This document shows positions 1,523-16,705 of a stretch of 64,000 nucleotides of DNA, in pieces. The notes below the pieces were generated by a model. That model made no database searches, was not told the origin of the DNA, and saw only the letters and a list, made by a program, of their open reading frames with translations. The number at the start of each line of letters is the position of its first letter. Positions within the stretch are counted from its first letter, which is position 1. The stretch lies in NCBI GenBank assembly GCA_963709345.1, contig CAVPVX010000007.1:640001-704000 (forward strand), written 5' to 3'. The DNA is from an uncultured Actinomycetes bacterium (GTDB lineage: Bacteria; Actinomycetota; Thermoleophilia; UBA2241). Both the position numbers and the translations under genes were made by a program.

Positions 1523-1665
1523 GACGACCCGCAGCTTACCATGGTGTAGACTCGGCACCAGAGGAAGCGCCCGCTCTCGGGCGTGATCAGCTGAAACGCC
1601 GGCGCCCCGCCCCCCGCGACCACCAACGCACCAGGCGTTGCCTCGCGCGCGCGAGGCGCACTCGC

Positions 1666-2856
1666 ATGACGAGACAGGACGACAGAGAAGGGCCGAAGGC
1701 CTACCGGACGTACAAGGCGCGCCGCACCCGGCGCAGCCACGTCGACGACGAGCTCGCCGGAGCACGCCGCGCGCGCGAGCCTCGCCCTCGCAGCCACGAG
1801 GCGAAGGTCGGCCGAGCCTCCGCCGACTACCCGGAGCGCAGCGACAAGGCGTACCACACCTACGGGCCCGCCCCGTCCGGGGGCAAGGGCGGCGGCAAGA
1901 AGAGCAGGCACGGAGGAGGCGGCCGACCGGCCAGACGGCGGCGGCGCTTCCGCTGGTGGTACGTACCCGTGGGCGTCTTCGCGGCCCTGGCGATCGCCGG
2001 CGTCGTCCTCACCGTCCTCGCCTGGCCCGGCTACCAGACCTTCGACCGCGCCGTCGACAAGTCCAACAAGCGCCTCGACAAGAAGACCAAGGCGCGGCTC
2101 GACCCCGACGCCGGCTGGATCTGGCGCAACGGGACCACACTGCTGCTGCTGGGCGTCGACAGCAAGGCGGGTGAGCCCGCCCGCTCGGACACGATCATGC
2201 TGATGCGCTTCAACCCGAAGACTCGCACGATCAACCAGCTCTCCATCCCGCGCGACACGAAGGTCGAGATCCCCGGCCGCGGCACCGGCAAGATCAACAC
2301 CGCGATGTTCTGGGGCGGCCCGTCACTCGCCCTCCAGACCGTGCAGGAGTTCACCGGCATCCCCATCAACCACGTGATGGTCGTCGACTTCAAGGGCTTC
2401 CCCCGCCTCGTCAACGCGGTGGGCGGCGTCGACATGAGGATCCCGAAGACGGTCACGACGACCGCCGGCAGCAACGCCCGGACGGTCGTCTTCAAGAAGG
2501 GCATGCACCACTTCGACGGCAAGTACGCGATGCTCTACGTACGCATCCGTTACGCCGACGACGACTTCCACCGCGCCTCCCGCCAGCAGGCGTTCATCCA
2601 GGCGCTCCAGAAGAAGATCGCGCAGCCGTCAAACGTCACCCGGCTTCCCGAGATCGGCAAGCGGTTCATGAGCGGCGTCGCCACAGATCTGACGACCAAC
2701 CAGATCCTCGAGCTCGCCTACCTCAAGTGGCGCTCCGGCGACGGCAAGAAGATGGTCATGACCGGCACTCCCGGCTGGGAAGGCGGAGTCTCATACGTCT
2801 TCCCGCCCGACGAGGCCACCCGCACCCGCCAGCTCGAGCGCTTCCTCGGCGACTGA
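1666..2856 (+). CDS. LCP (LytR-CpsA-Psr) family cell-wall glycopolymer ligase
   Basis: Basic N-terminus, one TM helix, LLLGVD..RSDTIML..SIPRDT..KIN and YVRIR..DDFHRASRQQ motifs. Confidence 0.93.
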   Translation: MTRQDDREGPKAYRTYKARRTRRSHVDDELAGARRAREPRPRSHEAKVGRASADYPERSDKAYHTYGPAPSGGKGGGKKSRHGGGGRPARRRRRFRWWYVPVGVFAALAIAGVVLTVLAWPGYQTFDRAVDKSNKRLDKKTKARLDPDAGWIWRNGTTLLLLGVDSKAGEPARSDTIMLMRFNPKTRTINQLSIPRDTKVEIPGRGTGKINTAMFWGGPSLALQTVQEFTGIPINHVMVVDFKGFPRLVNAVGGVDMRIPKTVTTTAGSNARTVVFKKGMHHFDGKYAMLYVRIRYADDDFHRASRQQAFIQALQKKIAQPSNVTRLPEIGKRFMSGVATDLTTNQILELAYLKWRSGDGKKMVMTGTPGWEGGVSYVFPPDEATRTRQLERFLGD

Positions 2857-2863
2857 GTCGCGC

Positions 2864-3649
2864 TCAGTACTCCACGGCGACCAGAGCGAGGCCGCGCGCC
2901 GGAGCAGTCTGACCCATGCGCCGGCGCTCCCCGGTCGCCAGGGCTGCGGCGAAGTCGTCGCACGTCGTGCGCCCCTGGCCCACGTCGACCATCGAGCCCA
3001 CGGCCACTCGCACCATGTTGTGCAGGAAGCTGCCGGCGGTGATCTCGAAGCGCCACTCGCCGCCCTCTCCGTCCGGCGTGGGACCCACGCGGCGCCACTC
3101 CGCCGAGAGCACCTCGCGCACGCAGGTGTGGTACATGTGCGCCGACGGGGTGAGAGCGGCGAAGTCGCGGTGGCCGGGCAGCAGCCGCGCCGCCGCCGCC
3201 AGCGCCGCCCCGTCGAGCGCGCCGCGCAGATTCCAGACGAAGGTGCGCTCGGCGACGGGCTTCACCGGAGACGCCCACAGCCGGTAGACGTAGGTGCGCG
3301 AGCGCGCCGCCCTGGCGCTGAAACCGGGCGCCGCCGGTGACACCTTCACAACCGCGACGGCCGGCGGCAGCAGAGCGTTGAGCGACATCCGCAGGCGCTC
3401 CGGCCGGACGTCTCGACGGGCGCAGGAGAACGAAGCCACCTGCGCCCACGCGTGGACGCCGGCGTCCGTCCGGCCGGCGACGCTGAGGCGGACGCTCTCA
3501 CGAAGCACGGTGGCGAGCGCCTCTTCCAGCACGCCTTCGACGGTCCGCTGCCCGGGCTGCTTCGCCCAGCCCCGGAAACCGGTGCCCTCGTACGTCAGAT
3601 CCAGACGCCAGACCGGCGGCGCGTCGCCGCCCCGTGTCGCCTCGCTCAC
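2864..3649 (-). CDS. truA: tRNA pseudouridine(38-40) synthase
   Basis: YEGTGFRGW, AGRTDAGVHA and FLHNMVR motifs; AAGGAGG SD. Confidence 0.97.
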   Translation of the reverse strand: MSEATRGGDAPPVWRLDLTYEGTGFRGWAKQPGQRTVEGVLEEALATVLRESVRLSVAGRTDAGVHAWAQVASFSCARRDVRPERLRMSLNALLPPAVAVVKVSPAAPGFSARAARSRTYVYRLWASPVKPVAERTFVWNLRGALDGAALAAAARLLPGHRDFAALTPSAHMYHTCVREVLSAEWRRVGPTPDGEGGEWRFEITAGSFLHNMVRVAVGSMVDVGQGRTTCDDFAAALATGERRRMGQTAPARGLALVAVEY

Positions 3650-3691
3650 GTGGCCTCCTTGCGGCGTCTCGAGTACAGGATCCCCGGCATC

Positions 3692-4474
3692 CTATACGAG
3701 GAGCCCCACGGCGATGACCGCCGCAGTGAGGGCCAGAAGGACGGCGTCGGCCACTCCGGCGCGCAGCGGGTGCAGCCTCGTCCGGACGATCCCCGGCCGG
3801 TAGCAGCGCGCCTCCATGGCCAGCGCCAGCTCGTCCGCGCGGCGAAAGCTGAGCACGAACAGCGGGACGAGCACGGGCACAAGAGCGCGGGCGCGCCTGC
3901 CGATGCCGCCGCTGCGAAAGTCGGCGCCACGGGCGCGCTGGGCACGCATGATCTGGTCGAGTTCGACGAGCAACGTCGGGATGAAGCGCAGGGCGATCGT
4001 GACCATGAGCGCCAGTTCGTCGGTCGGCACGCGCAGGCGACGGAGCGGCCTGCCCAGCCAGGCGAGACCGTCGGTGAGCGCGATCGGCGGCGTCGTGAGG
4101 GTGAGCACGGAGCCGATCAGGACGAGGACGATGAGCCGTAGACTGAGGAAGGCCGCGAGGTCGAGACCGGCCCACGAGAGCTCAAAGATCCAGAAGCTGA
4201 AGAAGGGCACCCCGGGAGCGAAGAGCACCTGGGCGAGAAAGGTGAAGCCGACCAGCCACAGGAGCGGCCGCACGGCGCGCCAGAACCAGGCCGCAGGGAC
4301 ACCGCTGAGCGCGAAGGCAGCCGCGCCGGCGCCGGCGAACACGAGCAGCCCCGCGTAGGAGTCGCGCACGAACAGCGCCACCGCGAGCACGCTGACGGCG
4401 ACGAACTTGGTGCGAGGGTCGAGACGGTGGATCGGCGACGTGCCCGGGTAGTATTGGGCGATGGTCGCCTTCAC
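3692..4474 (-). CDS. ecfT: ECF transporter transmembrane component T
   Basis: HRLDPRTK, AQRARG and AMEARCY signature motifs; hydrophobic. Confidence 0.95.
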   Translation of the reverse strand: MKATIAQYYPGTSPIHRLDPRTKFVAVSVLAVALFVRDSYAGLLVFAGAGAAAFALSGVPAAWFWRAVRPLLWLVGFTFLAQVLFAPGVPFFSFWIFELSWAGLDLAAFLSLRLIVLVLIGSVLTLTTPPIALTDGLAWLGRPLRRLRVPTDELALMVTIALRFIPTLLVELDQIMRAQRARGADFRSGGIGRRARALVPVLVPLFVLSFRRADELALAMEARCYRPGIVRTRLHPLRAGVADAVLLALTAAVIAVGLLV

Positions 4475-5337
4475 GACAGGAGTTCGGCGGCCGCGGCGGC
4501 CGTTCGGGGAGCTTCACGAGGGTCGCGCCCGAGGCGCCGCCACAGCGTGACCAACAAGGGCTCGCGCAGGCGGTTCGCAGCGAGCAGACGGGCGCCGGCG
4601 TCACCGAAGTCCCAGGCGCCGACGCTCACCACGCGCCCCTCGTCGAGGAGGAGCAGCTCGTCGCAAAGCGCCCAGGCGAGGTCGATGTCGTGCGTCGCGA
4701 GCACCAGCGTCACCCCGCCGTCCTTGAGCCGCCGCAGGATGTGCACAAGCTCGCGCCGCGTCTGAGGGTCGAGGCTCACGAAAGGCTCGTCGAGCAAGAG
4801 CAGACGAGGCTTCATCGCGAGCACGCCGGCCAGGGCGAGCCGCCGCTGTTCGCCCCCGGAAAGCGTGTACGGGTGGCGGTCGCCGAAGTCCGCCGGCGGC
4901 AGCCCCGACAGATCCATCGCCGCATCGACCGCAGCCGTGACATCGGCGTCGGACCAGCCCAGACGACGCGGACCAAAGGCCACGTCCTCCTTCGCCGTCG
5001 CCGCGAAGAGCTGCAGCTCGGGCGCCTGGAACACGAGGCCGACCTCACGGCGCAGCTCCGCGTGGCCCGACTCACCAGAGGCACACCCGTCGAGGAAGAC
5101 GACGCCGGACTCGGCCTCGTCGAGTCCGCGCACGACCTGCAGAAGCGTCGACTTGCCGGAGCCTGACGCCCCCAGCAACGCCAGCGACCCGCCGGCGGCC
5201 AGCTCGAAGCTCACGTCGCGAAGGGCGGGTATCGCACGCCGCCCCTCGCTGTAGGAGAAGCCGACACCGCGGCAAGCGACGGCTATGCCGGGCGGCGAGC
5301 CTCCCCGGCCGGCCGGTGCCGAGGACCTCTGGCTCAC
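4471..5337 (-). CDS. ecfA2: ECF transporter ATPase A2
   Basis: GASGSGKS, VFQAPELQLF, LSGGEQRR and LLLDEP; next to ecfT. Confidence 0.92.
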   Translation of the reverse strand: MSQRSSAPAGRGGSPPGIAVACRGVGFSYSEGRRAIPALRDVSFELAAGGSLALLGASGSGKSTLLQVVRGLDEAESGVVFLDGCASGESGHAELRREVGLVFQAPELQLFAATAKEDVAFGPRRLGWSDADVTAAVDAAMDLSGLPPADFGDRHPYTLSGGEQRRLALAGVLAMKPRLLLLDEPFVSLDPQTRRELVHILRRLKDGGVTLVLATHDIDLAWALCDELLLLDEGRVVSVGAWDFGDAGARLLAANRLREPLLVTLWRRLGRDPREAPRTAAAAAELLS

Positions 5338-6188
5338 GACGGCCCCTGCAGAGCGCCGACGAGATCGTCCAGCGTCAGCGGCAACGGGCCGTCGAGACGG
5401 CGCCCGCGGCCGGCGAGCTCGAGCGCGACCTCACCGGCCGCGGGCAGCCCGAGACCCAGACGCCGCACCAGAGCGCCGTCGCCGAAGAGACCGGCGGCGG
5501 CGCCCGCGTACACGACAGACCCGCGTTCGAGCGCCAGCGCGCGGTCGGCGCCGGGCACCTCGTCCATCTCCTGCGTGACGAAGACGATCGCGAGGCCGCC
5601 GTCCCGCAGCGCCGCGACGGCCTCGAGCACCTCTTCGCGGCCCGCCGGGTCGAGCATCGCCGTCGGCTCGTCCAGCACCAGCACCTTCCGCGGCACGGCC
5701 AGGACGCCCGCCAGCGCCGTGCGCTGCTTCTGGCCGCCGGAGAGCAGGTGCGGCTCGCGGCGGCGCAGGTCGCCCAGCCCGAACCTCTCAAGCATCTCGT
5801 CGACCCGGGCCCGCATGTCGGCCGGCGGCCAGCCGAGGTTCTCGAGGCCGAAGGCTATGTCGTCCTCCACGCAGTCGGCGACCAGCTGGTTCTCGGGATT
5901 CTGGAAAAGGACGCCCACGTCTCGCCGCGCCCCGAACCTGCCATCCTCGCTCAGCAGGTCGTGCCCGACGGCGACGGCGCGACGCGCGAAGGCGGCCTTC
6001 TCGAGGCCGCCCAGGATACGCGCCAGCGTGGACTTGCCGGAGCCGTTGGCGCCCACGACGGCGAGTGTCCGCCCGGCCTCGACCACCAGGGAGAGGTCGG
6101 CGAGCGCGTCGGCGCGCGCGCCGGCGTACCGGTAGTGCAGACCGGCGATGTCGACGAGCGGAGGTGAGCTGGGCAGAGGCGGGATCAT
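5334..6188 (-). CDS. ecfA1: ECF transporter ATPase A1
   Basis: GANGSGKS, FQNPENQLV, LSGGQKQR and LDEPTAMLDP; start codon uncertain. Confidence 0.92.
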   Translation of the reverse strand: MIPPLPSSPPLVDIAGLHYRYAGARADALADLSLVVEAGRTLAVVGANGSGKSTLARILGGLEKAAFARRAVAVGHDLLSEDGRFGARRDVGVLFQNPENQLVADCVEDDIAFGLENLGWPPADMRARVDEMLERFGLGDLRRREPHLLSGGQKQRTALAGVLAVPRKVLVLDEPTAMLDPAGREEVLEAVAALRDGGLAIVFVTQEMDEVPGADRALALERGSVVYAGAAAGLFGDGALVRRLGLGLPAAGEVALELAGRGRRLDGPLPLTLDDLVGALQGPS

Positions 6189-6282
6189 ACGAGCCGAAGC
6201 TTATCGCATCGTCCACGGCGGCCCGGCCGTCCCGGCCGGCATGGCCACCGGATGCCTCGCCGGCCGCTGCGATGGGAGCGGA

Positions 6283-6331
6283 ACCATGAGCGACGGGGCG
6301 GGCCCTTCGAGCCCGCCCCGTCGCTCATGGT
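6283..6331 (-). terminator. 21-bp stem hairpin closing the hdr/sulfurtransferase operon
   Basis: ACCATGAGCGACGGGGCGGGC (6283-6303) pairs perfectly with GCCCGCCCCGTCGCTCATGGT (6311-6331), about 50 nt after the FmdB stop. Confidence 0.75.
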
Positions 6332-6381
6332 CATTGGGTACTGCCGACGGACGGCGCGACCGCGCCGCGAGATCGTCAGCC

Positions 6382-6582
6382 TCAGCCGAACCCGCTGCTG
6401 CGCTGCGGAGCGCCGCACGACGGATCCGAGAGGGCGCCGTTGCGGAAGAAGCTCGCGAGCGTCTGCCGCACATGCTGCGAGCGACACTCGGGACAGCGCT
6501 TCTGTTTGTCGCGTATCGCGACCCGCGTCAGAACCTCGAACGTGTGGCCGCAGTCCTTGCAGATGAGATCGATGTGCGCCAT
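6382..6582 (-). CDS. FmdB-family zinc-ribbon protein
   Basis: CKDCGHTFE...CPECRS (CxxC-CxxC) with a short Ser/Gly tail; AAGGAG SD. Confidence 0.85.
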   Translation of the reverse strand: MAHIDLICKDCGHTFEVLTRVAIRDKQKRCPECRSQHVRQTLASFFRNGALSDPSCGAPQRSSGFG

Positions 6583-6616
6583 GGGCGGTGCCTGCTCCTT
6601 GGGTGAGTCGGGGGCG

Positions 6617-7099
6617 TCAGATGAACAGGTTGACGTTGGCCTCGTCGGCCTTTCCGAGGTAGGCCGCCACGCCCTCGAACTCGATGTCGTCGATGAGCTC
6701 CTCCTTCGTGAAGCCCAGGATGTCCATCGAGAGCGTGCAAGCGACGAACTCCACGCCCATCTCGCGGGCGCTGTCGAAGAGCTCCTCGAGCGACATTCCG
6801 CCGGCGTCCTTTGTGGCCTTCCTCATCATGGGACTGCCGGCTCCGGCGAAGTTCATCTTGGAGAGTCCGAGCTTCTTCGTGCCCTTGGGCATCATCCGGC
6901 CGAACATCGACTGAAGCGTAGACTTCTTGGCCTCGGTCGGGACCTTCTCCGGCTTGCGGAGGATGTTCAGACCCCAGAAGGTGCAGAAGATCGTGACGTC
7001 GTCGCCCATAGCGGCGGCGCCGTTGGCGATGATGAGTGCCGCCATCACCTTGTCGAAGTCGCCACTGAACAGGATGATCGTCTTCTTGGTCGTGTCCAC
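6617..7099 (-). CDS. DsrE2/DsrE-F-like sulfurtransferase
   Basis: LFSGDFDKVMAALIIANGAAAMG, FCTFWGL, SKMNFAGAG and ACTLSMD (conserved Cys). Confidence 0.92.
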   Translation of the reverse strand: MDTTKKTIILFSGDFDKVMAALIIANGAAAMGDDVTIFCTFWGLNILRKPEKVPTEAKKSTLQSMFGRMMPKGTKKLGLSKMNFAGAGSPMMRKATKDAGGMSLEELFDSAREMGVEFVACTLSMDILGFTKEELIDDIEFEGVAAYLGKADEANVNLFI

Positions 7100-7163
7100 T
7101 CCAGCACCTCCAGTGCTGTCCGTTTGTTGCCTTTCGAGACCGGGGGCCTGCGCGGGCCCTGCC

Positions 7164-8150
7164 TCAGGAGGCGGATGCCTCGCGCAGGTACTCGGAGATA
7201 TCCTTGAACCGCATGGTGTCGCCGGCGGCGGTACTCAGGTTGACGAAGCACATGGGGCACATCGTGACGCACTCGGGCGCGGCGGCTCGCAGCTGCTCGA
7301 CGCGCTTCTGCGCGTTGGCGGCCGCCTTCTGCGGGTAGAGTGACTCGACGGGGCCGCCGCAGCACCAGGTCTGGCGACCCGCGTACTCCGGGTCGAGGAC
7401 GGTGACGCCGGCGGCCGCAAGCAGCTCGCGCGGCTCGTCGACGACGCCCTCGTAGCGGGCGAAGACGCAGGAGTCGTGCAGCACGACTTCAGCGGGGGAG
7501 ATGCCGGCGCGTTTGCCGCCGCTTCCGTTGCCGCCGAAGTCCCTCTCCGCCAGCACCTCGAGGTAGCTCTTCACCTCGACGTCGTACCCCTTGAGGATCT
7601 TGGGATACACGGTGCGAAGCATCGTCGTGGTGTGCGGGTCGACGGTGATCACGGTCTTCACGGCGTGCTTCTTGAACACCGCGTGGACCTTCTTGGCGTG
7701 CTCGACGACGACCTCGTCGAGCCCGAGATCGTAGGCCAGGGCGCCCGAGTACAGGTCGTCCTCGTAGAGAGCGCCGAACTCGACGCCGGCGTCGCGGAGC
7801 AGATGCACGACATTGATCGGCACCTGATCGTAGCGGGCGCGCTCCTTCGCCGAGGGGCGCGCCATGAACGCCGAGATGTTGACGAACCGGTTCACCTTTC
7901 GACCGAGGCCGGTGTACTTGGCCAGCCATGAGTCGCCGAACTTCACCTCGGCCTTGACGAGGCCTTCGATGTACGGGATGAGCTGGTACATCATCCCCGT
8001 GTAGAGCACGGTCGCGCCGCCGCGCGGGAGGCCGAGGCCCTCGGTCCACTTGGTCGCCACCTTGGGGGACAGCGGCAGCACCGACTTGCGCAGGCGCAGG
8101 TTGTCGCCGAGGATGCCGATCACGTCGCCGGTCGGGAGAGGCATCGTCAT
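7164..8150 (-). CDS. CCG-domain Fe-S protein (HdrB/HdrD-like); only the C-terminal CCG domain keeps its Cys ligands
   Basis: HDSC, WCCGG and TMCPMC in the C-terminal half; ATGA overlap with the upstream gene at 8147-8150. Confidence 0.88.
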   Translation of the reverse strand: MTMPLPTGDVIGILGDNLRLRKSVLPLSPKVATKWTEGLGLPRGGATVLYTGMMYQLIPYIEGLVKAEVKFGDSWLAKYTGLGRKVNRFVNISAFMARPSAKERARYDQVPINVVHLLRDAGVEFGALYEDDLYSGALAYDLGLDEVVVEHAKKVHAVFKKHAVKTVITVDPHTTTMLRTVYPKILKGYDVEVKSYLEVLAERDFGGNGSGGKRAGISPAEVVLHDSCVFARYEGVVDEPRELLAAAGVTVLDPEYAGRQTWCCGGPVESLYPQKAAANAQKRVEQLRAAAPECVTMCPMCFVNLSTAAGDTMRFKDISEYLREASAS

Positions 8151-8461
8151 CCCTCCCCGTGGCCGAACGTCGTACGGACGATGTGATGCCGGAGCGTGCG
8201 CACGTTCTCGGCGATGTGTACGCCGGACGGGCAGTTCTCCTCGCACATCTTGCACAGCAGACAGGAGAAGACGCTCTCCGTCTCCTCCCGAACCTTGTCC
8301 TCCATGCCGAGAAGCACGTGGCGGAACAGCTTGCGCACCTCGACGTCGACACCCATCGGGCAGATGGCGGAGCACACCCCGCAGTTCATGCAGGCGTCGG
8401 CGTTGAACTCATCAGAGCACGCCAGTTCCGTCGCCAGCCCGGGGTTCACGAGAGCAGTCAT
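8147..8461 (-). CDS. HdrC-like 4Fe-4S dicluster protein
   Basis: CMNCGVCSAICP and CLLCKMCEENCP; 104 aa. Confidence 0.9.
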   Translation of the reverse strand: MTALVNPGLATELACSDEFNADACMNCGVCSAICPMGVDVEVRKLFRHVLLGMEDKVREETESVFSCLLCKMCEENCPSGVHIAENVRTLRHHIVRTTFGHGEG

Positions 8462-8751
8462 TTGCCCTCCCTCTCCACCACTTGATAGCGGTAGTAGCCG
8501 TCGTCGGTGACTTCTTTGATCTCGGCGAGCCAGCCGTACTTGCGCAGGCCCATGACCCAGAACATCACCTCATGGGTCGGGCGCTCGACGGCGGCCGCGA
8601 TCTCGGGCACCGTGAGCGGTCCGTCTTCAAGCGCTGCGAGGATGCGGCGGCGCATGACCTGCTCGTCGCGGACGACCTCACGGACGTCGCGTTGTCCTGG
8701 AGCGGCGTCCCGGATCACGGGTCGCCGGCCTGACCCGGTGGTCTGCGTCAT
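8458..8751 (-). CDS. Small winged-helix-like protein inside the hdr operon
   Basis: RRILAALEDGPLTVPEIAAAVE...VMGLRKYG...YYRY wHTH pattern; ATGA overlaps at both ends. Confidence 0.8.
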   Translation of the reverse strand: MTQTTGSGRRPVIRDAAPGQRDVREVVRDEQVMRRRILAALEDGPLTVPEIAAAVERPTHEVMFWVMGLRKYGWLAEIKEVTDDGYYRYQVVEREGK

Positions 8752-10487
8752 GAGCAGCTCACCTCCATCATGCCGTCGATCATCGATCTGATCTGGGCGT
8801 CGGTGTAGCCCTGCAGGTCGGTCGCGTCCACGGGGCAGACGGGCACGCAGCCGCCGCAGCCCTTGCACGCCGTCTTGATGACCTGCGCCACCTGTTTGCC
8901 GTCCATCTCGACCTGCTCGATGGCGTCGTAGGGACACGCCTCAAGACACTTGCCGCACCAGGTGCAGGCGGCGGTGTCGACGATGGCGACCATCGGGTCG
9001 AGCTCGGCGTAACCGCGCTTGAGCATGGCGCCACTGTGCGTGACGGCGGCGAGGCCGCTGGCGACCGCCTCGGCCGAGTTCTTCGGCGACTGGCAGGAGC
9101 CACAGATGGTGACGCCGTCCACGATGGTCTCCACCGGGCGCAGCTTGGGGTGGATCTCGTTGTAGAAGCCGTCGTTGCCGACCGGCAGCTTGAGTACGCT
9201 GACGAGCTCGCCGTTCTCGCGCGGTACCATGCCGGTGACGAGCACGACGAGGTCGGCGGGTATGGCGACTTCTTCGCCCCCGGTGAGCAGGTCCTTCGTG
9301 GTGACCTTGAGACCGCCGGACGGGAGCTTCTCCACCTCCGGCGGTTCGTCGTCCGGCATGCGCAGATACAGCGAGCCCTTCTCACGCGACTCGTTCCAGA
9401 GCAGCTCGTACTTGCCGTAGGTGCGGATGTCGCGGTAGAGGTGGTACTGGCGCAGTCCGGCGAGGCCCTTCTCGGCCGCCTTGAGCGCAGCGTGCACGGC
9501 GGCTGTGCAGCAGTAGCGCGAGCAGTAGGTGTGAGCGCCTTCGACGCTCTCGTCCTGGCGACTGCCGACGCAGTAGATGTAGGCGATGGTCTTGACGGGC
9601 CGGCCGTTGTACTCGAGCGAACCGGCCGCTTCATCCACCATCTTCTTGAACTCCGGCAGAGTGACGACACCGTCCAGGCCGTAGCCGAACTCGCCGGCCG
9701 CCGGCTCGTAGGTGTCCGCGCCGGTGGCGACGATGATCGAGCCCACGTCGACCTGGACGGTCTCGAGCTGCTCGCCGTGGATGGCGATCGTCACCTGGTT
9801 GTTGCCGAAGCTGCCGCTCTTGGCCATCAGCTCGGCGTTCGTGTACACGGTGATCGCCGGATGAGCGCGCACCTTCTCTTCGAGGGTCGCGATCAGCTCG
9901 GCGCCCTTGCGCTCGTTCGGGTACATCTCGGCGAATCCGGCGACGCGGCCGCCGAGCTGCGGCTCCTTCTCGACGAGGAATACGCCGAGGCCGATCTCGG
10001 CCAAGCCGAGGGCGGCGCGCAGGCCGGCCACCCCGCCGCCCACCACAAGGCTTCTCGGCGTCGTCTCGACGACGATCGGCTCGAGCGGCTCGGTGAGGCG
10101 CGTCCGGTTGATTCCGGCGCGGACGAGCCGCACCGCCTTCTCGGTCGCGCCCGTATGGTCGTCGGTGTGCGTCCACGAGCACTGCTCGCGGACGTTGACC
10201 TGCGTGTACTGGAACGGGTTCATGCCGGCGCGCTTGGCCACGTCACGGAAGGTGACCGTGTGCAGCTTGGGCGAGCACGAGGCGACGACGAGCGCGTCGA
10301 GGCCCTGCTCCTCCGCGTCCTGCACGATCTCCTGCTGGGTCGCGTCGGAACAGGTGAACATGGCGGAGCGGGCGACGACGACGTCGTCGTCTCCCTTGAT
10401 CTCCTCGACGACCTTGTCGACGTCGACGTAGTCGCCGATGTTGCCGCCGCACTGACAGACGTACACGCCGATCTTGCGGCCGCTCAT
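8748..10487 (-). CDS. hdrA: Heterodisulfide reductase subunit A family flavoprotein, 579 aa (N-terminal domain plus C-terminal ferredoxin)
   Basis: IGVYVCQCGGNI, VVASCSP, NVREQCSW, VVGGGVAG, CVGSR..CSRYCC and two C-terminal CxxCxxCxxxCP. Confidence 0.95.
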   Translation of the reverse strand: MSGRKIGVYVCQCGGNIGDYVDVDKVVEEIKGDDDVVVARSAMFTCSDATQQEIVQDAEEQGLDALVVASCSPKLHTVTFRDVAKRAGMNPFQYTQVNVREQCSWTHTDDHTGATEKAVRLVRAGINRTRLTEPLEPIVVETTPRSLVVGGGVAGLRAALGLAEIGLGVFLVEKEPQLGGRVAGFAEMYPNERKGAELIATLEEKVRAHPAITVYTNAELMAKSGSFGNNQVTIAIHGEQLETVQVDVGSIIVATGADTYEPAAGEFGYGLDGVVTLPEFKKMVDEAAGSLEYNGRPVKTIAYIYCVGSRQDESVEGAHTYCSRYCCTAAVHAALKAAEKGLAGLRQYHLYRDIRTYGKYELLWNESREKGSLYLRMPDDEPPEVEKLPSGGLKVTTKDLLTGGEEVAIPADLVVLVTGMVPRENGELVSVLKLPVGNDGFYNEIHPKLRPVETIVDGVTICGSCQSPKNSAEAVASGLAAVTHSGAMLKRGYAELDPMVAIVDTAACTWCGKCLEACPYDAIEQVEMDGKQVAQVIKTACKGCGGCVPVCPVDATDLQGYTDAQIRSMIDGMMEVSCS

Positions 10488-13255
10488 GCCTTCACCTTCA
10501 CTTTCGACTCTTCCGCGACTTTCGCTCTCTCCAGATGAGCAGCGGCCTGTGCGACCGCGGCGCCCGCGTGGAGAATGGAGTCGGGGATGTCCTTGGCCCC
10601 GGCGGCCGCGCCCGCGACGAACACGCCGGGGAGGTTGGTGCGGCCGGGGTCCATGTCTTCGTCGGCTTCGCCGACGTAGTAGTAGTCGTCGAGCGCCAGG
10701 GCCTCGCCGGCGCCGTCGAAAAGCTCGGCGACGCCGCGACCGGGCTGGACGCCGACCGCGAGCACGACCATGTCGTGCTCCGTCTCGACGAGCGCGCTGC
10801 CGTTCTCGATGTCCTCGTAGCGGAGCGTGAGGTTGCCTTCGTCGGTCTCGGTGATACCCGAGACGCGGCCCTTCACGAAGTTGGCGCCCATGTCTTTGGC
10901 CTGCTCGTAGAACTCGTCGTACCCCTTGCCCACGGAGCGTACGTCGATGTAGTAGACGGTGACGTCGGCGAGCGGCAGGGCGCCCATGATGAGCTGGTTC
11001 TGCTTGACCGAGTACATGCAGCAGATCTTGGAGCACAGCGGGTTGTCCACGGTGTCGTCGCGGGACCCGGTGCACAGGATGTAGGCGATGTTGTCCGGCA
11101 CCTTGCCGTCGCTGGGGCGAAGCACGGCGTTGTACGGCCGGGTCGGCGCCAGCAGGCGGTCCATCTGCATGCCGGTGACGACGTTCTTGTAGCGGCCGAA
11201 TCCGTACTGCGGCTTCGCGTCGGCCGGGAAGAGGTTGAAGCCCGTGGCCAGGACCACGCTGCCGAACTCCGCCTCGATCTCCTTCTCGCGCATGCTGAAG
11301 TCGATGCAGTCGGCGGGGCAGATGTCCACGCACGCGTGGCACTCGGAGCAGACACCGCAGTCGAGGCAGCGGCTCGCGCTGTGCAGCGCCTCTTCCTCGG
11401 TCATCGTCTGCTCGTCCTCGTAGAACTCGCCCGGCGCAAGTGTCACGGTCTCCCGCGGGTTGAGAGGCTCGATGCGGCTGTACGTCGCCTGCCGCCTCAG
11501 AACGGCCTCCTTGTCCACCATCGGCAGAGGGCCGTCGAATGCCGCGGGATCCAGCTCCAGGCCCTGGAGGAAGCGGTCGATCATGAAGGCCGCCCGCCAG
11601 CCCTGGCCGGCGGCGGAAGTGATCATCGAGGGGCCGGAGACGACGTCGCCGGCGGCAAACACGCGAGGCACGCTGGTCTGCAGGGTGCCCGGATCCGCCT
11701 TGATCGTCCCGGTGCTGTTGATGGGGAGACCGAAGGCGCCCGCGTCGGGTCTCATGCCCGCGGCGACGACCACGAGGTCGCACTCAAGGCTTCCGAGGGT
11801 CTCGTCCTCATACTGCGGGCTGAAGCTGCCCTCCTCGTCGAACACCGAGACGCAACGCAGGAGCTCGACGCTGCGCACGGCGTCGCCGCCGCTGAACTGA
11901 CGCACCCCGCACGAGTTCTGGAAGGCGACGCCCTCCTGGCGAGCCTCCTCGACCTCCCAGGCATGCGCGGGCATCTGCTCGTGGGCTTCGAGGCTCGCCA
12001 CCTGTACCGATGCGGCCTTCAGCCGCAGCGCGGTGCGCGCCGCATCGAGGGCGACGTTGCCGCCTCCGACCACAACGACACGCTTGCCCTCGACGTCCAG
12101 CTCTTCGCCAAGCTTGGCGGCGCGGAGGAAGTCGGCGGAGCGCATGACGCCGCGAAGATCCTCGCCGGGCACGCCGAGCTTCGTGCCGAGGTGCGTACCC
12201 ACAGCCACGAGCACGGCGTCGTAGCCTGCCTCCTTCAACTCGTCCAGATCCTCGACGCGCGAGTCCGTCTCTATCACCACGCCGGCCGCCGTCACATTCG
12301 CGAGGTCCTGGTCGACGACTTCGTTCGGGAGGCGGTACGGCGGGAGCGCCAGACGCAGCAGACCACCCGGCTGAGACGCGGCTTCGAAGACCTTCACCCC
12401 GTAGCCCTTGCGGGCCAGATGCCAGGCCGCGGTCACACCGGCCGGGCCGGAGCCGATCACCGCCACCTTCTTACCGTTGGGATCCGCGATCTTGACGCTC
12501 GTCTCGCCCTTGGCGTAGTGAGTGTCTGCGATGAAGCGCTTGAGGCGGCGGATGGAGAGGGATCCCTCCAGATCGCCCCGCATGCACTCAGCCTCGCACG
12601 GGGCGTAGCACGCCCGGCCGAGGCTGCCGACCAGCGGCGTCGCCTCGCAGACAAGGTCGAACGCCTTCTCGTACTCGCCGCTGCGTATGAGCGCGACATA
12701 GCCGTGCGCCTTGATGCCCGCAGGGCACTCGTAGCTGCACGGCGAGACGCCCTCGCGGCTGATCACGGCCTTCTTCGGCACCGCCTGGGGGAAGGCGATG
12801 TACGCCGCCCGCCGCGACACCATGTCGGCGTTGAACTCGTCGGGGACGGCGACGCTGCAGGCCATCTCGCACTGGCGACAGCCGGTGCAGGCGACCTCGT
12901 CGACGTATTTCGGCTTCTGCAGGATCCGGGCGTGATAGGTGCCGTCGCCGTTGGCGCGGATGCCCTCGACCTCGGCGTACGTGAGTACGTCGATGTTGGG
13001 GTGGTGGATGGTCGCGGCCATCTTGGGGGTGGAGATGCAGCTGGCGCAGTCGAGCGTCGGGAACACCTTGCTGAGCAGGATCATCTTGCCGCCGACGCTG
13101 GCGTCCTTCTCGACGACGAGGACCTTGTAGCCCATGTCGCCGAGCTTGAGCGCCGACTCCATACCGCCGATGCCGCTGCCGACCACCAGAGCGTCGTACT
13201 TGAGCGCTGCACCTTCGGCGCCCCGCTCGATAGCTTCGCTTCGTTGGCTGTTCAT
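10484..13255 (-). CDS. HdrA-family flavoprotein with an inserted GltD/NfnB-like NAD(P)H oxidoreductase (HdrL-like), 923 aa
   Basis: HdrA core (VVGSGIGG, KVFPTLDCASC, CTGSRD..CSKICC, GAKDIPDS) interrupted by PCSYECP..GRACYAPCEAEC, IGSGPAG and VGGGNVALD. Confidence 0.93.
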   Translation of the reverse strand: MNSQRSEAIERGAEGAALKYDALVVGSGIGGMESALKLGDMGYKVLVVEKDASVGGKMILLSKVFPTLDCASCISTPKMAATIHHPNIDVLTYAEVEGIRANGDGTYHARILQKPKYVDEVACTGCRQCEMACSVAVPDEFNADMVSRRAAYIAFPQAVPKKAVISREGVSPCSYECPAGIKAHGYVALIRSGEYEKAFDLVCEATPLVGSLGRACYAPCEAECMRGDLEGSLSIRRLKRFIADTHYAKGETSVKIADPNGKKVAVIGSGPAGVTAAWHLARKGYGVKVFEAASQPGGLLRLALPPYRLPNEVVDQDLANVTAAGVVIETDSRVEDLDELKEAGYDAVLVAVGTHLGTKLGVPGEDLRGVMRSADFLRAAKLGEELDVEGKRVVVVGGGNVALDAARTALRLKAASVQVASLEAHEQMPAHAWEVEEARQEGVAFQNSCGVRQFSGGDAVRSVELLRCVSVFDEEGSFSPQYEDETLGSLECDLVVVAAGMRPDAGAFGLPINSTGTIKADPGTLQTSVPRVFAAGDVVSGPSMITSAAGQGWRAAFMIDRFLQGLELDPAAFDGPLPMVDKEAVLRRQATYSRIEPLNPRETVTLAPGEFYEDEQTMTEEEALHSASRCLDCGVCSECHACVDICPADCIDFSMREKEIEAEFGSVVLATGFNLFPADAKPQYGFGRYKNVVTGMQMDRLLAPTRPYNAVLRPSDGKVPDNIAYILCTGSRDDTVDNPLCSKICCMYSVKQNQLIMGALPLADVTVYYIDVRSVGKGYDEFYEQAKDMGANFVKGRVSGITETDEGNLTLRYEDIENGSALVETEHDMVVLAVGVQPGRGVAELFDGAGEALALDDYYYVGEADEDMDPGRTNLPGVFVAGAAAGAKDIPDSILHAGAAVAQAAAHLERAKVAEESKVKVKA

Positions 13256-13692
13256 GCGGTCGCCTTCCGGGTCGTCGGTCCCAAGCCGGAGAGGGACTCC
13301 GAGTATTCGTGCATGTAGTTGGTGAAGGGCTCCGCGCAGACGGAACAGATCGCGGCCATGCGCACTCTCTGCGGCTCGTAGCCCCTCTCGACCAGCAGTG
13401 CCTGCGCGTCCATCATGATCTTGGCGGTGCGCTGGCTGCAGTCGGGCAGGAACGCGCACTCCTCGCCGTCGGCGGCGATGAAGACTCCGTCGAAACCCTG
13501 CTCCATGGCGTAGAGGATCCAGCTCGGCTTGATACCACTGGTGCACGGAACGCTGATCACCATGACCTTGGGCGAGTAGTGCATGTGCGAACTGCCGGCC
13601 AGGTCGATGCCCGGGTCGGAGATGTTGTTGGTGCTGAAGACCAGGATGCGCGGGGAATATGCCTGATCGTCGAGTGCGGCAGTCTCGGCCAT
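13252..13692 (-). CDS. mvhD: MvhD-like (hydrogenase iron-sulfur subunit delta) protein with an atypical Cys pattern
   Basis: PRILVF..DLAG..Y..VISVPC..ILYAMEQGFDGV..EC..L..RGYEPQRV follows the MvhD pattern. Confidence 0.85.
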   Translation of the reverse strand: MAETAALDDQAYSPRILVFSTNNISDPGIDLAGSSHMHYSPKVMVISVPCTSGIKPSWILYAMEQGFDGVFIAADGEECAFLPDCSQRTAKIMMDAQALLVERGYEPQRVRMAAICSVCAEPFTNYMHEYSESLSGLGPTTRKATA

Positions 13693-13694
13693 CG

Positions 13695-13946
13695 TCACTT
13701 CATCTTCTTCACGAAGAGGCGCATGAAGCCCGGCTCCTCGACCACGCCCAGATACTCGTGACCCATCTTCTTGGACCACGCCGGGAGGTCCTTGGTCGTG
13801 CCGCTGTCGGTCGCCTGGACCTCCATCACGCCGCCTACGGAGACGCTGGGAATGCCCTTCTTGGCGGCCAGGATGGGACCAGGGCACGAGGTGCCTCGCG
13901 CGTCGACGACTTTCTCTACCTGGATGTTGGCGAGGTCTTCGGACAT
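13695..13946 (-). CDS. tusA: TusA-family sulfur carrier
   Basis: VDARGTSCPGP motif, ATDSGTTKDLPAW..GHEY; AAGGAG SD. Confidence 0.93.
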   Translation of the reverse strand: MSEDLANIQVEKVVDARGTSCPGPILAAKKGIPSVSVGGVMEVQATDSGTTKDLPAWSKKMGHEYLGVVEEPGFMRLFVKKMK

Positions 13947-14083: not shown

Positions 14084-14512
14084 TCACACCTGAGGCGCCA
14101 CCGGCGCATCCGGCGCCCCAGTCCCATCCGGCCGGGCACGCGCGGCATCGAGGAACTCGGCGACCTGCAGCGATTCACCCTGTGCGACGTGCTGCTCCAC
14201 CAGCGCCTCGCGGATGAGGGCGCACGCCTCCATGAATTTGCGGTTCGTGACGCGGTAGTACACGGTCTGAGCCTCTTTGCGCGACGCCACGAGCCGGCGC
14301 TCTTTGAGCACGCGCAGGTGCTGCGAGACGTTGTGGACCGAGATACCGACCTCCTCGGCGAGGTCGCCCACGCACTTCTCCTCGTCGCAGATGGCGTGCA
14401 GGATCGCCTGACGATGCTCGTTCGCGAGAGCCCGACAGAGGTCTGCATGCATCCGAAAGAGCGGCTTGAGATCCGGCGCGGCGGGCGTGTCACTGTCGTT
14501 GCATACTTGCAT
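14084..14512 (-). CDS. ArsR/SmtB-family transcriptional repressor, Cys-rich
   Basis: ALANEHRQAIL..EKCVGDLAEEVGISVHNVSQHLRVLK..RKEAQTVYY. Confidence 0.93.
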   Translation of the reverse strand: MQVCNDSDTPAAPDLKPLFRMHADLCRALANEHRQAILHAICDEEKCVGDLAEEVGISVHNVSQHLRVLKERRLVASRKEAQTVYYRVTNRKFMEACALIREALVEQHVAQGESLQVAEFLDAARARPDGTGAPDAPVAPQV

Positions 14513-14738: not shown

Positions 14739-15089
14739 CTACACCAGCTCGATGTACGCCTGCTCGCTGCCGTCGCCGGGGCGCGGGCCGAGCTTGATGA
14801 TGCGCGTGTACCCGCCGTGACGGTCGGCGTAGCGAGGCGCCACGTCGTTGAACAGCTTGTACACGATCTTCTTGTTGCGCAGCATGGCGATCGCCTGACG
14901 GCGCGCGTGCAGATCGCCGCGCTTGCCCAGCGTGATGGCCTCTTCGACCATCGGGCGGACTTCCTTGGCGCGCGCTACGCCGGTCTTGACCTTCTCGTGC
15001 TCGAGGACCTGGCAGGCGAGACCCGACAGCAGCGACCGCCGCTGGTCGGGAGCCATGTTGAACTTGCGGCCTGAGTTCTGATGGCGCAT
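14739..15089 (-). CDS. rplQ: 50S ribosomal protein L17
   Basis: MRHQNSGRK..RAKEVR..GGYTRIIKLGPRPGDG. Confidence 0.97.
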   Translation of the reverse strand: MRHQNSGRKFNMAPDQRRSLLSGLACQVLEHEKVKTGVARAKEVRPMVEEAITLGKRGDLHARRQAIAMLRNKKIVYKLFNDVAPRYADRHGGYTRIIKLGPRPGDGSEQAYIELV

Positions 15090-15090
15090 G

Positions 15091-16038
15091 TTACTCGTCA
15101 CCCCGCAAAGAGAGCCCGCGCTCGATGAGCTTTTCCTTGACCTCGTCGATGCTCTTCTTGCCGAAGTTCGGGATGTTGAGCAGCTCGGCCTCTGTCTTGG
15201 AGACCAGGTCGCCGACGGTCTGGATACCCTCGCGCTTGAGGCAATTGTAGGAACGGACGCCGAGCTCGAGCTCCTCGATGAGCACGTCGTCCATGCCGCC
15301 TCCGACCTGCATGGAGTCAAGCCCCTCGATCGGGAGCTCCTCGCTGGAACGCGTGCGGTCGGGGTCGGTGAAGATCGACATCCGGTCGACGAGGATCTCG
15401 GCGGCTTCCCTCAGCGCCTCTTCGGGCAGGAGAGCACCGTTGGTCGTGATGTCGAGTATGAGCTTGTCGTAGTCTGTACGCTGGCCGACACGGGCGCTCT
15501 CGACGTGGTACGAGACACGCTTGATGGGGCTGAAGATCGAATCCATCGGAATGACCCCGATGACCGTCTCCGGCGTCTTGTTGCCCTCAGCCTGCACGTA
15601 GCCCGTACCGCGCCTGACGGTGATCAGCATCTCGATGGCGCCGCCGTCGGAGAGCGTCGCGATCTGATGATCCGGGTTGAGGATCTCCAGCTCCGCCGGG
15701 ATGTCGACGTCGGCGGCCACGACCTTGCCGGGCTTGTCCTTGTACAAGCGGACCTGGACCTCGTCGAGCTCACCATGCAGGCGGCAGACGAGCTCCTTGA
15801 GGTTCAGGATGACGTCGGTGACGTCTTCCTTGACGCCCTTGACGGTGGTGAACTCGTGGGCGACGCCTTCGATCTTGACTGAACTGACGGCTGCGCCCTC
15901 GAGCGACGACAGCAGGACCCGGCGCAGCGCGTTGCCGAACGTATGCCCGAAACCGCGATCGAGAGGCTCGACCTCAAAGCGCGCGCGGTTGCCGGCGAGC
16001 TGCTCGCGGGTGATGTTGGGCATCTGAAACTGTAGCAA
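15091..16038 (-). CDS. rpoA: RNA polymerase alpha subunit
   Basis: [30 protein letters not shown] and NFGKKS; TTG start after AGGAGG. Confidence 0.98.
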
Positions 16039-16084
16039 CTGGCCTCCTGTAGACTCTTCGCCGCGGGTTAGCTGCTGCAGCGGA

Positions 16085-16705
16085 TTATTTGGAGTACAGC
16101 TCGACGATGAGCTGCTCCTGCACCGGGGCGTCGATCTCGTCGCGCTCGGGAGCGCGCAGGACCTTGCCGGTGAGGTTGTCATGGTCGACCAGGAGCCACG
16201 GCGAGACCGACGACGTGAGATCGGTCGCGGCGCGCACGGTCTCGACGGCCTTGCTGTTGGAGCGCATCGCCACCACGTCGTCAGGGCGGACCTGGTACGA
16301 CGGGATGTCGACCTTCTTGCCGTTGACGGTGAAGTGGGCGTGGCACACCAGCTGACGCGCCTGGCGCCTCGATGCGCCGAAGCCGAGGCGGTACACGACA
16401 TTGTCGAGCCGCATCTCAAGGATGCGCAGAAGGTTCTCGCCGGTGATGCCGTCCTTGCGGCTGGCCATCACGTAATACCGGTGGAACTGCTTCTCGAGCA
16501 CCTGGTAGTAGCGGCGCGCCTTCTGCTTCTCACGCAACTGCAGAAGGTACTCACTCTGCTTGATGCGGCCGCGGCCGTGCTCCCCCGGCGGGTACGAGCG
16601 CCGCTCTACCGCGCACTTGTCCGTGAGGCACCGCTCGCCCTTGAGAAAGAGCTTCTCAGCCTCGCGGCGACACTGCTTGCACTGTGCTGACGTATCTTTC
16701 GCCAC
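16085..16705 (-). CDS. rpsD: 30S ribosomal protein S4 (zinc-binding form)
   Basis: [35 protein letters not shown]. Confidence 0.98.

Follow-up and report, generated by a model that had tools for sequence, protein, structure and literature searches.

Introduction

Noncubane [4Fe-4S] clusters serve as the catalytic centers both in heterodisulfide reductases and in the final step of sulfate respiration. In the reductase subunit HdrB, the heterodisulfide CoM-S-S-CoB is cleaved between two such clusters (PMC10861901; PMC13083937). Here we describe a gene for an HdrB-like protein that retains only one of the two cluster sites. The gene lies on the minus strand, at positions 7164-8150 of a 64,000-nucleotide stretch of DNA (the window; forward strand of contig CAVPVX010000007.1, positions 640,001-704,000, assembly GCA_963709345.1) from an uncultured Actinomycetes bacterium (Actinomycetota; Thermoleophilia; UBA2241), in an operon that also encodes the sulfur carrier TusA. 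In the reading that we favor, with a probability of about one half, its product is the terminal, HdrB-type subunit of a soluble, NAD(P)H-linked Hdr-like complex that would use a single proximal cluster to reduce sulfane sulfur bound to a carrier.

CCG proteins with one noncubane cluster are an established class, comprising DsrK, HmcF, TmcB, sHdrB3, FadF, and DgcB. HdrB and HdrD contain two CCG motifs, while DsrK, HmcF, and TmcB contain one, together with a conserved Cys of the missing site, and the DsrMKJOP complex reduces the DsrC trisulfide (PMC10861901). The single cluster of DsrK occupies the proximal HdrB position, of the distal ligands only Cys329 has not been replaced, and the cluster reduces a sulfur intermediate that is bound to protein (10.64898/2026.08.25.746951). 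How a single noncubane cluster works is a mechanistic question that has been raised explicitly for DsrK (PMC10861901; 10.64898/2026.08.25.746951). The sHdr systems are always accompanied by TusA and DsrE proteins; sHdrB3 of the type II systems is an HdrC2-B2 fusion able to bind one noncubane cluster only, and in Aquifex the sHdrB subunits were pulled down by TusA (10.1101/2023.12.18.572138). In EtfD, the first CCG domain carries a [3Fe-4S] cluster of the linear type; the second has a noncubane [4Fe-4S] cluster (D2) in which His583 completes the coordination, "making it non-catalytic" in the authors' words, and FadF and DgcB, which lack the first-domain (D1) cysteines, are proposed to take up electrons directly at D2 (PMC13083937).

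Results

The N-terminal cluster site of the HdrB-like protein contains no cysteine

The gene is an intact reading frame of 328 codons for amino acids, and the ATG at 8150 overlaps the stop codon of the adjacent hdrC gene (ATGA); a second ATG two codons on, at 8144, is the start position of homologues. The gene and its two domains are as follows.

7164..8150, minus strand: HdrB-like subunit, 328 amino acids, one complete CCG motif (intact frame, Pfam CCG, AlphaFold2 model, fold matches)
7551..8018, minus strand: N-terminal Cys-free pseudo-CCG domain, approximately residues 45-200 (no Cys in residues 1-227; new conserved residues)
7236..7487, minus strand: C-terminal CCG domain, residues 222-305, with C228, C263, C264, C298, and C301 (Pfam PF02754; five Cys invariant)

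All six Cys of the protein (residues 228, 263, 264, 294, 298, and 301) are C-terminal, and the Pfam CCG model (PF02754) matches one stretch only, residues 222-305 (E 6.3e-12). The canonical HdrB pattern of two five-Cys motifs (CXnCCGXmCXXC) is not present, since only the C-terminal motif, CX34CCX33CXXC, was found. The protein reads YTGMMY at residue 50, DDLYSG at 131, and TVDPHT at 169, followed by HDSC at 225, WCCGG at 262, and CPMC at 298, and the positions of the distal ligands are occupied by M53, Y55-Q56, Y134-S135-G136, and D171-P172-H173-T174. Two-CCG relatives in the representative set have Cys opposite M53, Y134, S135, and T174, and alignment with EtfD (PDB 9ojn), both as single sequences and by profile, places DDLYSG over GETCTG and VDPHT over TCPHC. 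An earlier note on this DNA, made from the letters of the window alone, had claimed that every Cys expected in the N-terminal domain is replaced in these three motifs, and that the three C-terminal motifs are kept; because the two-CCG relatives and the EtfD alignments agree, its mapping of motifs to lost Cys is correct. NCBIfam models gave sub-threshold matches only, to the CCG-bearing enzymes TfrB, LdhH, and DsrK, with the DsrK model NF045796 scoring 22 bits (cut-off 400) over residues 221-267 only.

The C-terminal domain is predicted to form a noncubane [4Fe-4S] site from its five motif Cys, and this position is the proximal one in HdrB and DsrK (10.64898/2026.08.25.746951). Judged from the sequence, just one noncubane-cluster site can form in the protein, in agreement with the note. 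Four other CCG proteins of the source genome each retain two CCx and two CxxC motifs. The same genome also contains a long reading frame for an atypical CCG protein (G000:C4:300850-301095; at least 734 amino acids within the locus, open frame of 989 amino acids), in which two CCG-like motifs lack CxxC pairs to go with them and Pfam marks just one CCG stretch.

The Cys-free site is conserved and has acquired new invariant residues

All 120 of the closest homologues (77-89% identity) have none of the five N-terminal Cys, all five C-terminal Cys, and Y134, D171, P172, and H173. A wider HMMER search of 1.84 billion representatives gave 2827 matches at E <= 0.001, of which 119 were at E <= 1e-30. 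From the 150 representatives listed, 45 were set aside because a residue was absent at one of the ten positions (mostly fragments), leaving 105 complete sequences. Among these, 70 had no N-terminal and five C-terminal Cys, 17 had one and five, and 2 had two and five; nine had four N-terminal Cys (six with five C-terminal Cys, three with four), and in seven the C-terminal motif was incomplete (three 0/4, three 1/4, and one 0/1, N-terminal/C-terminal). When the relatives of a distant family member (P0162) were examined, 114 of 115 were complete, with 71 of the 0/5 and 43 of the 1/5 type, the single Cys being at position 53.

We also extracted 115 full-length genes from 125 related loci which, with the window gene, made a set of 116. 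Every one of these encodes Y134-[S/A/T]-G136, D171-P172-H173-[T/S], and all five C-terminal Cys; 18 have one N-terminal Cys, again at position 53, and the rest have none at the five sites. In an alignment of 70 sequences, Y134, G136, P172, and the five Cys were invariant, and W35, Y55, Q56, P59, and H173 were conserved in at least 90%. We define a Cys-free-N-domain CCG family by the signature Y-x-G / D-P-H-[TS] together with one five-Cys motif, which the window protein carries, and in which H173 is 98% conserved.

Because the Cys-free state is conserved and new residues have become invariant in the old site, the first domain is a re-made site rather than a decayed one, and the distal cluster site is replaced by a conserved polar pocket (Y55-Q56, Y134-x-G, D171-P-H173-T/S). 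These data bear out the note's view that the loss was selected and did not arise by decay: in the alignment of orthologues that it had proposed as a check, neither the 120 close homologues nor the 116 locus genes have a two-domain Cys set.

The fold is retained and H173 aligns with a cluster-capping histidine

An AlphaFold2 model of the HdrB-like protein, built from the 70-sequence alignment, had a mean predicted local distance difference test score (pLDDT) of 91.9 and a predicted template modeling score (pTM) of 0.92. When fold comparisons were made with Foldseek and VIA-align, Mycobacterium smegmatis EtfD (9ojn) matched over model residues 1-328 (Z 28.4, root-mean-square deviation 3.0, 268 aligned), the LutA model 9a6l matched with Z 22.1, and methanogen HdrB (5odc_B) matched over residues 45-328 (Z 19.5, root-mean-square deviation 2.6, 227 aligned), so that the two-domain HdrB fold is seen. 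According to the model, the CCG-domain fold is kept in both halves and only the first-half ligands are gone. Profile comparison gave the same order, the family profile matching EtfD at E 7.6e-27 (positions 103-317) and methanogen HdrB at 1.7e-12 or weaker. H173 aligned with EtfD His583 in both the single-sequence and the profile alignments and, by homology with EtfD, we infer that it adjoins or ligates the proximal noncubane cluster.

The gene lies in an operon with TusA and an NAD(P)H-binding HdrA-like protein

The operon consists of nine open reading frames on the minus strand, in the order ArsR, TusA, MvhD, HdrL, HdrA, small winged-helix protein, HdrC, HdrB, and DsrE2-family protein, and five junctions (MvhD-HdrL, HdrL-HdrA, HdrA-winged-helix, winged-helix-HdrC, and HdrC-HdrB) are 4-nucleotide start/stop overlaps. 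Scans of the products with Pfam and NCBIfam profiles gave the following assignments for the genes beside hdrB.

14084..14512, minus strand: ArsR/SmtB-type regulator (Pfam HTH_5, E 8.4e-13)
13695..13946, minus strand: TusA-type sulfur carrier with CPGP active-site Cys (Pfam PF01206, E 1.2e-18)
13252..13692, minus strand: MvhD/FlpD-type subunit (Pfam PF02662, E 2.8e-29)
10484..13255, minus strand: large HdrA-like protein, 923 amino acids, with an inserted GltD-type NAD(P)H-binding module ("HdrL"-like; Pfam, NCBIfam)
8748..10487, minus strand: HdrA-like flavoprotein with a C-terminal 2x[4Fe-4S] domain (Pfam Pyr_redox_2 and Fer4)
8458..8751, minus strand: small winged-helix-like protein, 97 amino acids, no Cys (weak Pfam HTH matches only)
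8147..8461, minus strand: HdrC-like ferredoxin, 104 amino acids, two CxxCxxCxxxC motifs (Pfam Fer4_17, Fer4_8; TIGR03290 under its cut-off)
6617..7099, minus strand: DsrE2/DsrE3-family protein (PF13686), 160 amino acids, GTG start (Pfam DrsE_2, E 4e-60)

The HdrL-like protein matched Pfam Pyr_redox_2 (E 2.9e-45) and Fer4_20, with HdrA2 matches at both ends, and scored 439 bits against NCBIfam NF009410 (cut-off 516). The HdrA-like flavoprotein, whose reading frame was extended by nine codons to an upstream Met, matched the NCBIfam HdrA2 and HdrA models at E 4e-137, under the equivalog cut-offs, and the DsrE2-family protein scored 81.8 bits against NCBIfam DsrE2 (cut-off 210). The cysteines expected to matter in these proteins are largely retained among homologues: the eight Cys of HdrC in 80-81 of 81, the active-site Cys of TusA in 57 of 58, C121 of the DsrE2-family protein in 43 of 44, and C26 and C97 of ArsR in 47 and 45 of 55, respectively. 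The 97-residue winged-helix-like protein had no NCBIfam match; it is encoded between HdrA and HdrC in every locus that covers this stretch, and none of its 74 homologues in related loci has a conserved Cys. Its position recalls that of the small "H" gene between shdrA and shdrC2 of sHdr clusters, a likeness of position. Pfam detected no membrane or quinone-binding module, electron transfer flavoprotein (ETF) match, lipoate-binding protein, or DsrM-like gene among the nine products.

The TusA of the operon is a dedicated copy, because the other TusA of the source genome (G000:C4:222978-223187; locus positions 4481-7398) is encoded beside a class-V aminotransferase of the cysteine desulfurase type and a NifU-like gene. 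That second region resembles a housekeeping sulfur relay, and it adjoins a two-component system with an HD-domain response regulator. A complex prediction for HdrB with TusA, from alignments of each, gave a score of 0.08, which counts neither for nor against binding.

The operon is an accessory element of several phyla

We compared 45 loci from species-level genomes and 80 metagenome loci. The operon order was common to the 45 genome loci, from uncultured Thermoleophilia, Actinomycetota/Actinomycetes, Gaiellales, Acidimicrobiales, Chloroflexia, and Bacillota, and was also carried by sediment metagenome contigs. TusA was present upstream of HdrB in 33 of the 45, which is 33 of the 33 that reach far enough; the other 12 cannot show it because the locus stops short of 5.1 kb upstream of HdrB. 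TusA was likewise found in each of the 17 operon-type metagenome loci that extend far enough upstream. A DsrE2-family gene directly downstream of HdrB was seen in 37 of the 45 genome loci, and of the others, three had a distant DsrE-like gene upstream, four had none that we could see, and one was too short. In the 17 long operon-type metagenome loci, the DsrE2-family gene was downstream in two, and four had a weak DsrE-like match upstream.

Within the order, the operon was found in 34 of 89 genomes, the source genome included, and in 12 of the 32 of high quality, and no HdrB orthologue was found at E <= 1e-60 in 300 other genomes sampled evenly across the phylum. In the source genome it is flanked by rplQ/rpoA and ecfA-ecfA-ecfT-truA (window positions 2864-6188 and 14739-16100). 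RplQ, RpoA, EcfT, and TruA were nearby in none of the 45 related genome loci, and the operon therefore occupies different places in different genomes. These differing flanks make a mobile-element insertion a possibility. It is an accessory operon, patchily distributed across several phyla. Metatranscriptome contigs from two runs of one study (X15 and X19) covered 29 of 30 operon bins at 85% likeness or more, a weak hint of expression, in that the contigs come from relatives and DNA carry-over is possible; the shares of sampled words were small (0.05-0.26), so that no habitat is named.

Several loci depart from the common arrangement. On a contig from a palsa metagenome-assembled genome (L043), a second ArsR-TusA-MvhD-HdrL-HdrA-HdrC set lies on the opposite strand (3207-8300, minus) beside the DsrE2-family gene, and is divergent, with 31-60% identity to the window proteins. 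A metagenome contig (L133) has two operon-type HdrC-HdrB pairs, at 1664-3032 and 8210-9536, the second upstream of ArsR, DsrE-like, and TusA genes, and its two HdrB copies are sisters on the tree described below. In two genomes of the same family, the HdrB orthologue matches (G380:C3:14363-15145 and G381:C14:208084-208869) do not begin until profile positions 62-68 and have one TGA in frame, and these may be broken copies.

Relatives outside the operon share the same site

The Cys-free-N-domain family is large and old, and is found in bacteria and archaea. Relatives at 35-45% identity came from Sulfolobales, Desulfurococcales, Vulcanisaeta thermophila, Caldisphaera, Korarchaeum, Zixibacteria, and Thermodesulfobacteriota, under generic names in the source records, with V. 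thermophila the sole cultured species given there. Metagenome HdrB-like genes scoring above 400 bits with an operon-type profile were in the TusA-Hdr operon, and those at 220-390 bits were mostly outside it. For twenty of the lower-scoring genes, a gene for a GlcD-like FAD-linked oxidase or a LUD-domain/Fer4 (LutB-like) protein lay no more than 4.5 kb away, in most cases accompanied by a small HdrC-like ferredoxin, and TusA, DsrE, and HdrA were not detected beside them. Another 19 had neither a GlcD nor a LUD neighbor, six of these being on short contigs and within the operon clade. Two loci (L111 and L121) have HdrA-like genes nearby and were labeled as the TusA-Hdr type, yet fall outside the operon clade.

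On three archaeal-type contigs (L072 7222-11161, L084 7240-11140, and L058 8980-12922), a GlcD-like FAD oxidase, an HdrC-like ferredoxin, a Cys-free CCG protein, and a LUD/Fer4 (LutB-like) protein are encoded together. From its gene content, such a cluster looks like a 2-hydroxyacid dehydrogenase with a one-cluster CCG subunit.

In a quick IQ-TREE tree of 124 rows, which included five two-CCG outgroups, a branch with 99% support parted all the single-motif proteins from the outgroups. The TusA-Hdr type formed one 99% clade of 60 rows, while the GlcD/LUD and orphan types were on several branches outside it; the order of the deeper forks is not firm, because support there was 83-92%. Seven proteins of about 410-430 amino acids (P0159, P0185, P0201, P0206, P0210, P0223, and P0230) are HdrC-HdrB fusions with one Pfam CCG stretch and the Y / D-P-H signature, mostly in a clade of their own; they may include sHdrB3-type proteins. 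W35, Y50, T51, Y55, Q56, Y134, G136, D171, P172, H173, T174, H225, D226, R232, R241, and the Cys are shared by at least 95% across both settings, and just 11 positions set the TusA-linked clade apart. On the simplest reading of these relationships, the family had already lost its distal cluster when it was recruited into the TusA operon.

Discussion

A possible mechanism for sulfane sulfur reduction at one cluster

The complex that we envisage would consist of the HdrL-like NAD(P)H-binding flavoprotein, HdrA, MvhD, HdrC, HdrB, and the small winged-helix protein, and is co-encoded with TusA, the DsrE2-family protein, and the ArsR-type regulator. NAD(P)H would donate electrons to the GltD-like module of HdrL, from where they would travel by way of the cofactors of HdrA and MvhD and the two clusters of HdrC to the single noncubane cluster of HdrB. 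TusA would bring in the sulfane sulfur as a Cys-persulfide, with the DsrE2-family protein as an intermediary in some lineages. Reductive cleavage of the persulfide would leave its terminal sulfur bound to the special iron, from which it would depart as sulfide, while the Tyr/Asp/His pocket would protonate the carrier thiol, with no need for a second cluster or an enzyme Cys. One cluster would suffice, because a persulfide needs one cluster-binding sulfur only. The gene neighborhood is what points to this substrate, and we also infer the direction of electron flow, the role of H173, and any electron bifurcation. There is precedent in DsrK, where protein-bound sulfur is reduced at a single noncubane cluster, and in the pull-down of Aquifex sHdrB subunits by TusA.

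The note had argued that a one-cluster site cannot follow the canonical Hdr mechanism; with a single site the two-cluster homolytic route cannot apply, and the DsrK literature argues likewise for its own protein (PMC10861901; 10.64898/2026.08.25.746951). Its suggestion of a protein-bound persulfide as substrate fared in part: it is plausible, because TusA is constant in the operon, and synteny is what it draws on. The further idea that the cysteines were lost as an adaptation to such a bulky substrate was not upheld. The Cys-free N-domain is family-wide, and occurs also in GlcD/LUD clusters without TusA or DsrE; if the loss predates recruitment to the TusA operon, it would therefore not be an adaptation to a bulky protein substrate.

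Several observations weigh against sulfane sulfur reduction by the complex. The Cys-free site occurs with the same residues beside GlcD/LUD genes that have no sulfur carriers, and its chemistry is therefore not obviously sulfur-specific. The EtfD His that matches H173 caps a cluster described as non-catalytic (PMC13083937). The distal half-site of the window protein, unlike that of DsrK, keeps no Cys for an intermediate. The DsrE2-family gene is not constant, with 11 of the 17 long operon-type metagenome loci lacking it, and in the source genome (98% complete) neither DsrA nor a YeeE/YedE-type sulfur importer was found and no source of sulfane sulfur was identified. We advance a more specific proposal only tentatively, namely that the operon encodes a soluble protein-persulfide reductase not described before, driven by NAD(P)H and possibly flavin-bifurcating, widespread in anoxic-sediment bacteria, in which TusA-bound sulfane sulfur would be cleaved at one noncubane cluster with a Tyr/Asp/His half-site and no enzyme Cys.

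Alternative roles for the single cluster

The cluster might instead be an electron relay only, fully coordinated by five Cys and H173 like D2 of EtfD, where electrons would enter from or leave toward a non-thiol partner or acceptor, with TusA and the DsrE2-family protein serving other ends such as regulation or cofactor sulfur supply. We regard this as rather unlikely, although it is in line with the alignment of H173 with His583, with the closer likeness to EtfD than to methanogen HdrB in both profile and fold, and with the GlcD/LUD-cluster members that lack sulfur carriers and have identical site residues, and the direct electron uptake at D2 proposed for FadF and DgcB (PMC13083937) offers a parallel. 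What speaks against a pure relay is the company and composition of the protein: in the operon-type clade, TusA is co-encoded without exception and retains its active Cys, an ArsR-type regulator that has two conserved Cys is co-encoded too, Pfam found neither a membrane nor a quinone-binding module among the operon products, and all five motif Cys are kept, including the last, the counterpart of HdrB Cys234, which is a displaceable, "supernumerary" ligand (PMC13083937; 10.64898/2026.08.25.746951).

If the complex ran in the oxidative direction, as sHdr does, TusA- or DsrE-bound sulfane sulfur would be oxidized, and NAD(P)+, alone or together with ferredoxin, would receive the electrons. The operon has TusA, a DsrE-family protein, and an ArsR-type regulator in common with sHdr loci, the order HdrA, small protein, HdrC, HdrB resembles the gene cluster shdrA-H-C2-B2, and sHdrB3 also binds one noncubane cluster only. 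However, the operon has a single HdrC/HdrB pair and no lipoate-binding protein gene among its nine genes, and HdrL and MvhD are not sHdr components in the published account (10.1101/2023.12.18.572138). This direction seems improbable to us. Moreover, if NAD(P)+ is the acceptor, oxidizing sulfane sulfur as far as sulfite is energetically demanding. Still less probable is a new two-centre site, in which D171, H173, Y134, and Q56 would hold some other cofactor or a mononuclear metal; Asp, His, and Tyr commonly serve as ligands of metals and do not vary within the family, but H173 is, by homology, already engaged with the noncubane cluster, and profile and fold searches revealed no known metal site. 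That the N-terminal domain is a functionless, decaying remnant is hardly credible, since nothing beyond the absence of Cys speaks for it, while the domain is as well conserved as the C-terminal one (80-89% identity among the close homologues listed), its new residues are invariant, and its fold is confident in the AlphaFold2 model; we rejected decay as contradicted by the conservation data.

Should sulfane sulfur reduction be the function, the protein would represent a third way to use noncubane clusters, beside the two clusters of Hdr and the cluster plus Cys of DsrK, and the same half-site in the archaeal GlcD/LUD clusters would couple 2-hydroxyacid oxidation to sulfur reduction. The Cys-free family can be viewed as a minimal soluble version of the single-cluster design, with five proximal ligands, no helper Cys, and a Tyr/Asp-Pro-His pocket at the former second cluster. 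It occurs in two settings, with sulfur carriers and with 2-hydroxyacid dehydrogenases, and is therefore a good system in which to ask whether such a cluster is catalytic or a relay. The operon is also a candidate for sulfane sulfur handling in uncultured sediment and soil Thermoleophilia-like bacteria without Dsr.

Comparison with known systems

The literature that we searched, in which subscription journals were mostly outside coverage, contained no description of the operon or of a Cys-free N-terminal CCG domain. Methanogen HdrB (5ODC chain B, of HdrABC-MvhAGD) shares with the window protein the two-domain fold, the complete C-terminal five-Cys motif, and HdrC, HdrA, and MvhD-type partners, and the gene company of a canonical HdrB is present as well, in the form of two HdrA-like genes and a neighboring HdrC whose eight Cys are conserved. 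It differs in having two five-Cys motifs, where the distal motif of the window protein has no Cys, and the sequence likeness is confined to the C-terminal half. HdrL-type bacterial Hdr, an idea from Desulfobacterium autotrophicum (PMC12142623), is similar in that an NAD(P)H-binding module is joined to HdrA, HdrB, HdrC, and an MvhD-like protein.

The window protein resembles LutA/GlcF-type CCG subunits in its fold match to the LutA model, and Cys-free family members lie between GlcD-like and LutB-like genes on the archaeal-type contigs; the window gene itself, however, is in an HdrA/TusA operon and not in a lactate or glycolate dehydrogenase cluster. A layout comparable to that of the operon, an NAD(P)H module with HdrABC, is known in FlxABCD-HdrABC, for which DsrC is the proposed acceptor. 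The carrier co-encoded here is TusA, and DsrA was not detected in the genome; dsrC was not searched for.

Among the one-cluster proteins, DsrK, HmcF, and TmcB have a single proximal noncubane cluster with the distal ligands replaced, and the substrate of DsrK, the DsrC trisulfide, is protein-bound. DsrK, unlike the Cys-free N-domain of the window protein, retains in its distal half-site a strictly conserved, non-ligating Cys329 as well as His331; the last motif Cys is replaced by Asp in many DsrK proteins (A. fulgidus AF0502 among them), whereas the window protein keeps all five; and DsrK is fused to a ferredoxin part with two clusters and attaches to membrane-bound DsrM (PMC10861901; 10.64898/2026.08.25.746951), whereas the window protein has no Fer4 domain and a separate HdrC. 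EtfD (9OJN) is the best match in sequence and fold and shares the P-H of the first-domain CxxC, and FadF and DgcB have also lost the first-domain cluster cysteines. EtfD is, however, a membrane protein of about 1000 amino acids that contains a b heme as well as fused ferredoxin domains, carries a linear [3Fe-4S] cluster, and receives electrons from ETF (PMC13083937), whereas the window protein is a free 328-residue subunit with a CCG match only, in an HdrA-type operon. The sHdrB3 protein, compared here by its description, likewise has one noncubane cluster and is encoded with TusA and DsrE-type sulfur transferases, and the window operon has such companions in its TusA and PF13686 protein. It is, however, an HdrC2-HdrB2 fusion that works with sHdrC1B1, LbpA, EtfAB, and EMO (10.1101/2023.12.18.572138), none of which is in the window operon, and where sHdr is defined by two HdrC/HdrB pairs and LbpA, the operon has one pair. 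From its sequence, then, the window protein differs from the known one-cluster CCG proteins in a first domain that is wholly Cys-free and bears a sharp Y / D-P-H-T signature, and it is also distinct as a free HdrB-type subunit encoded in an HdrA/HdrL/MvhD operon with TusA.

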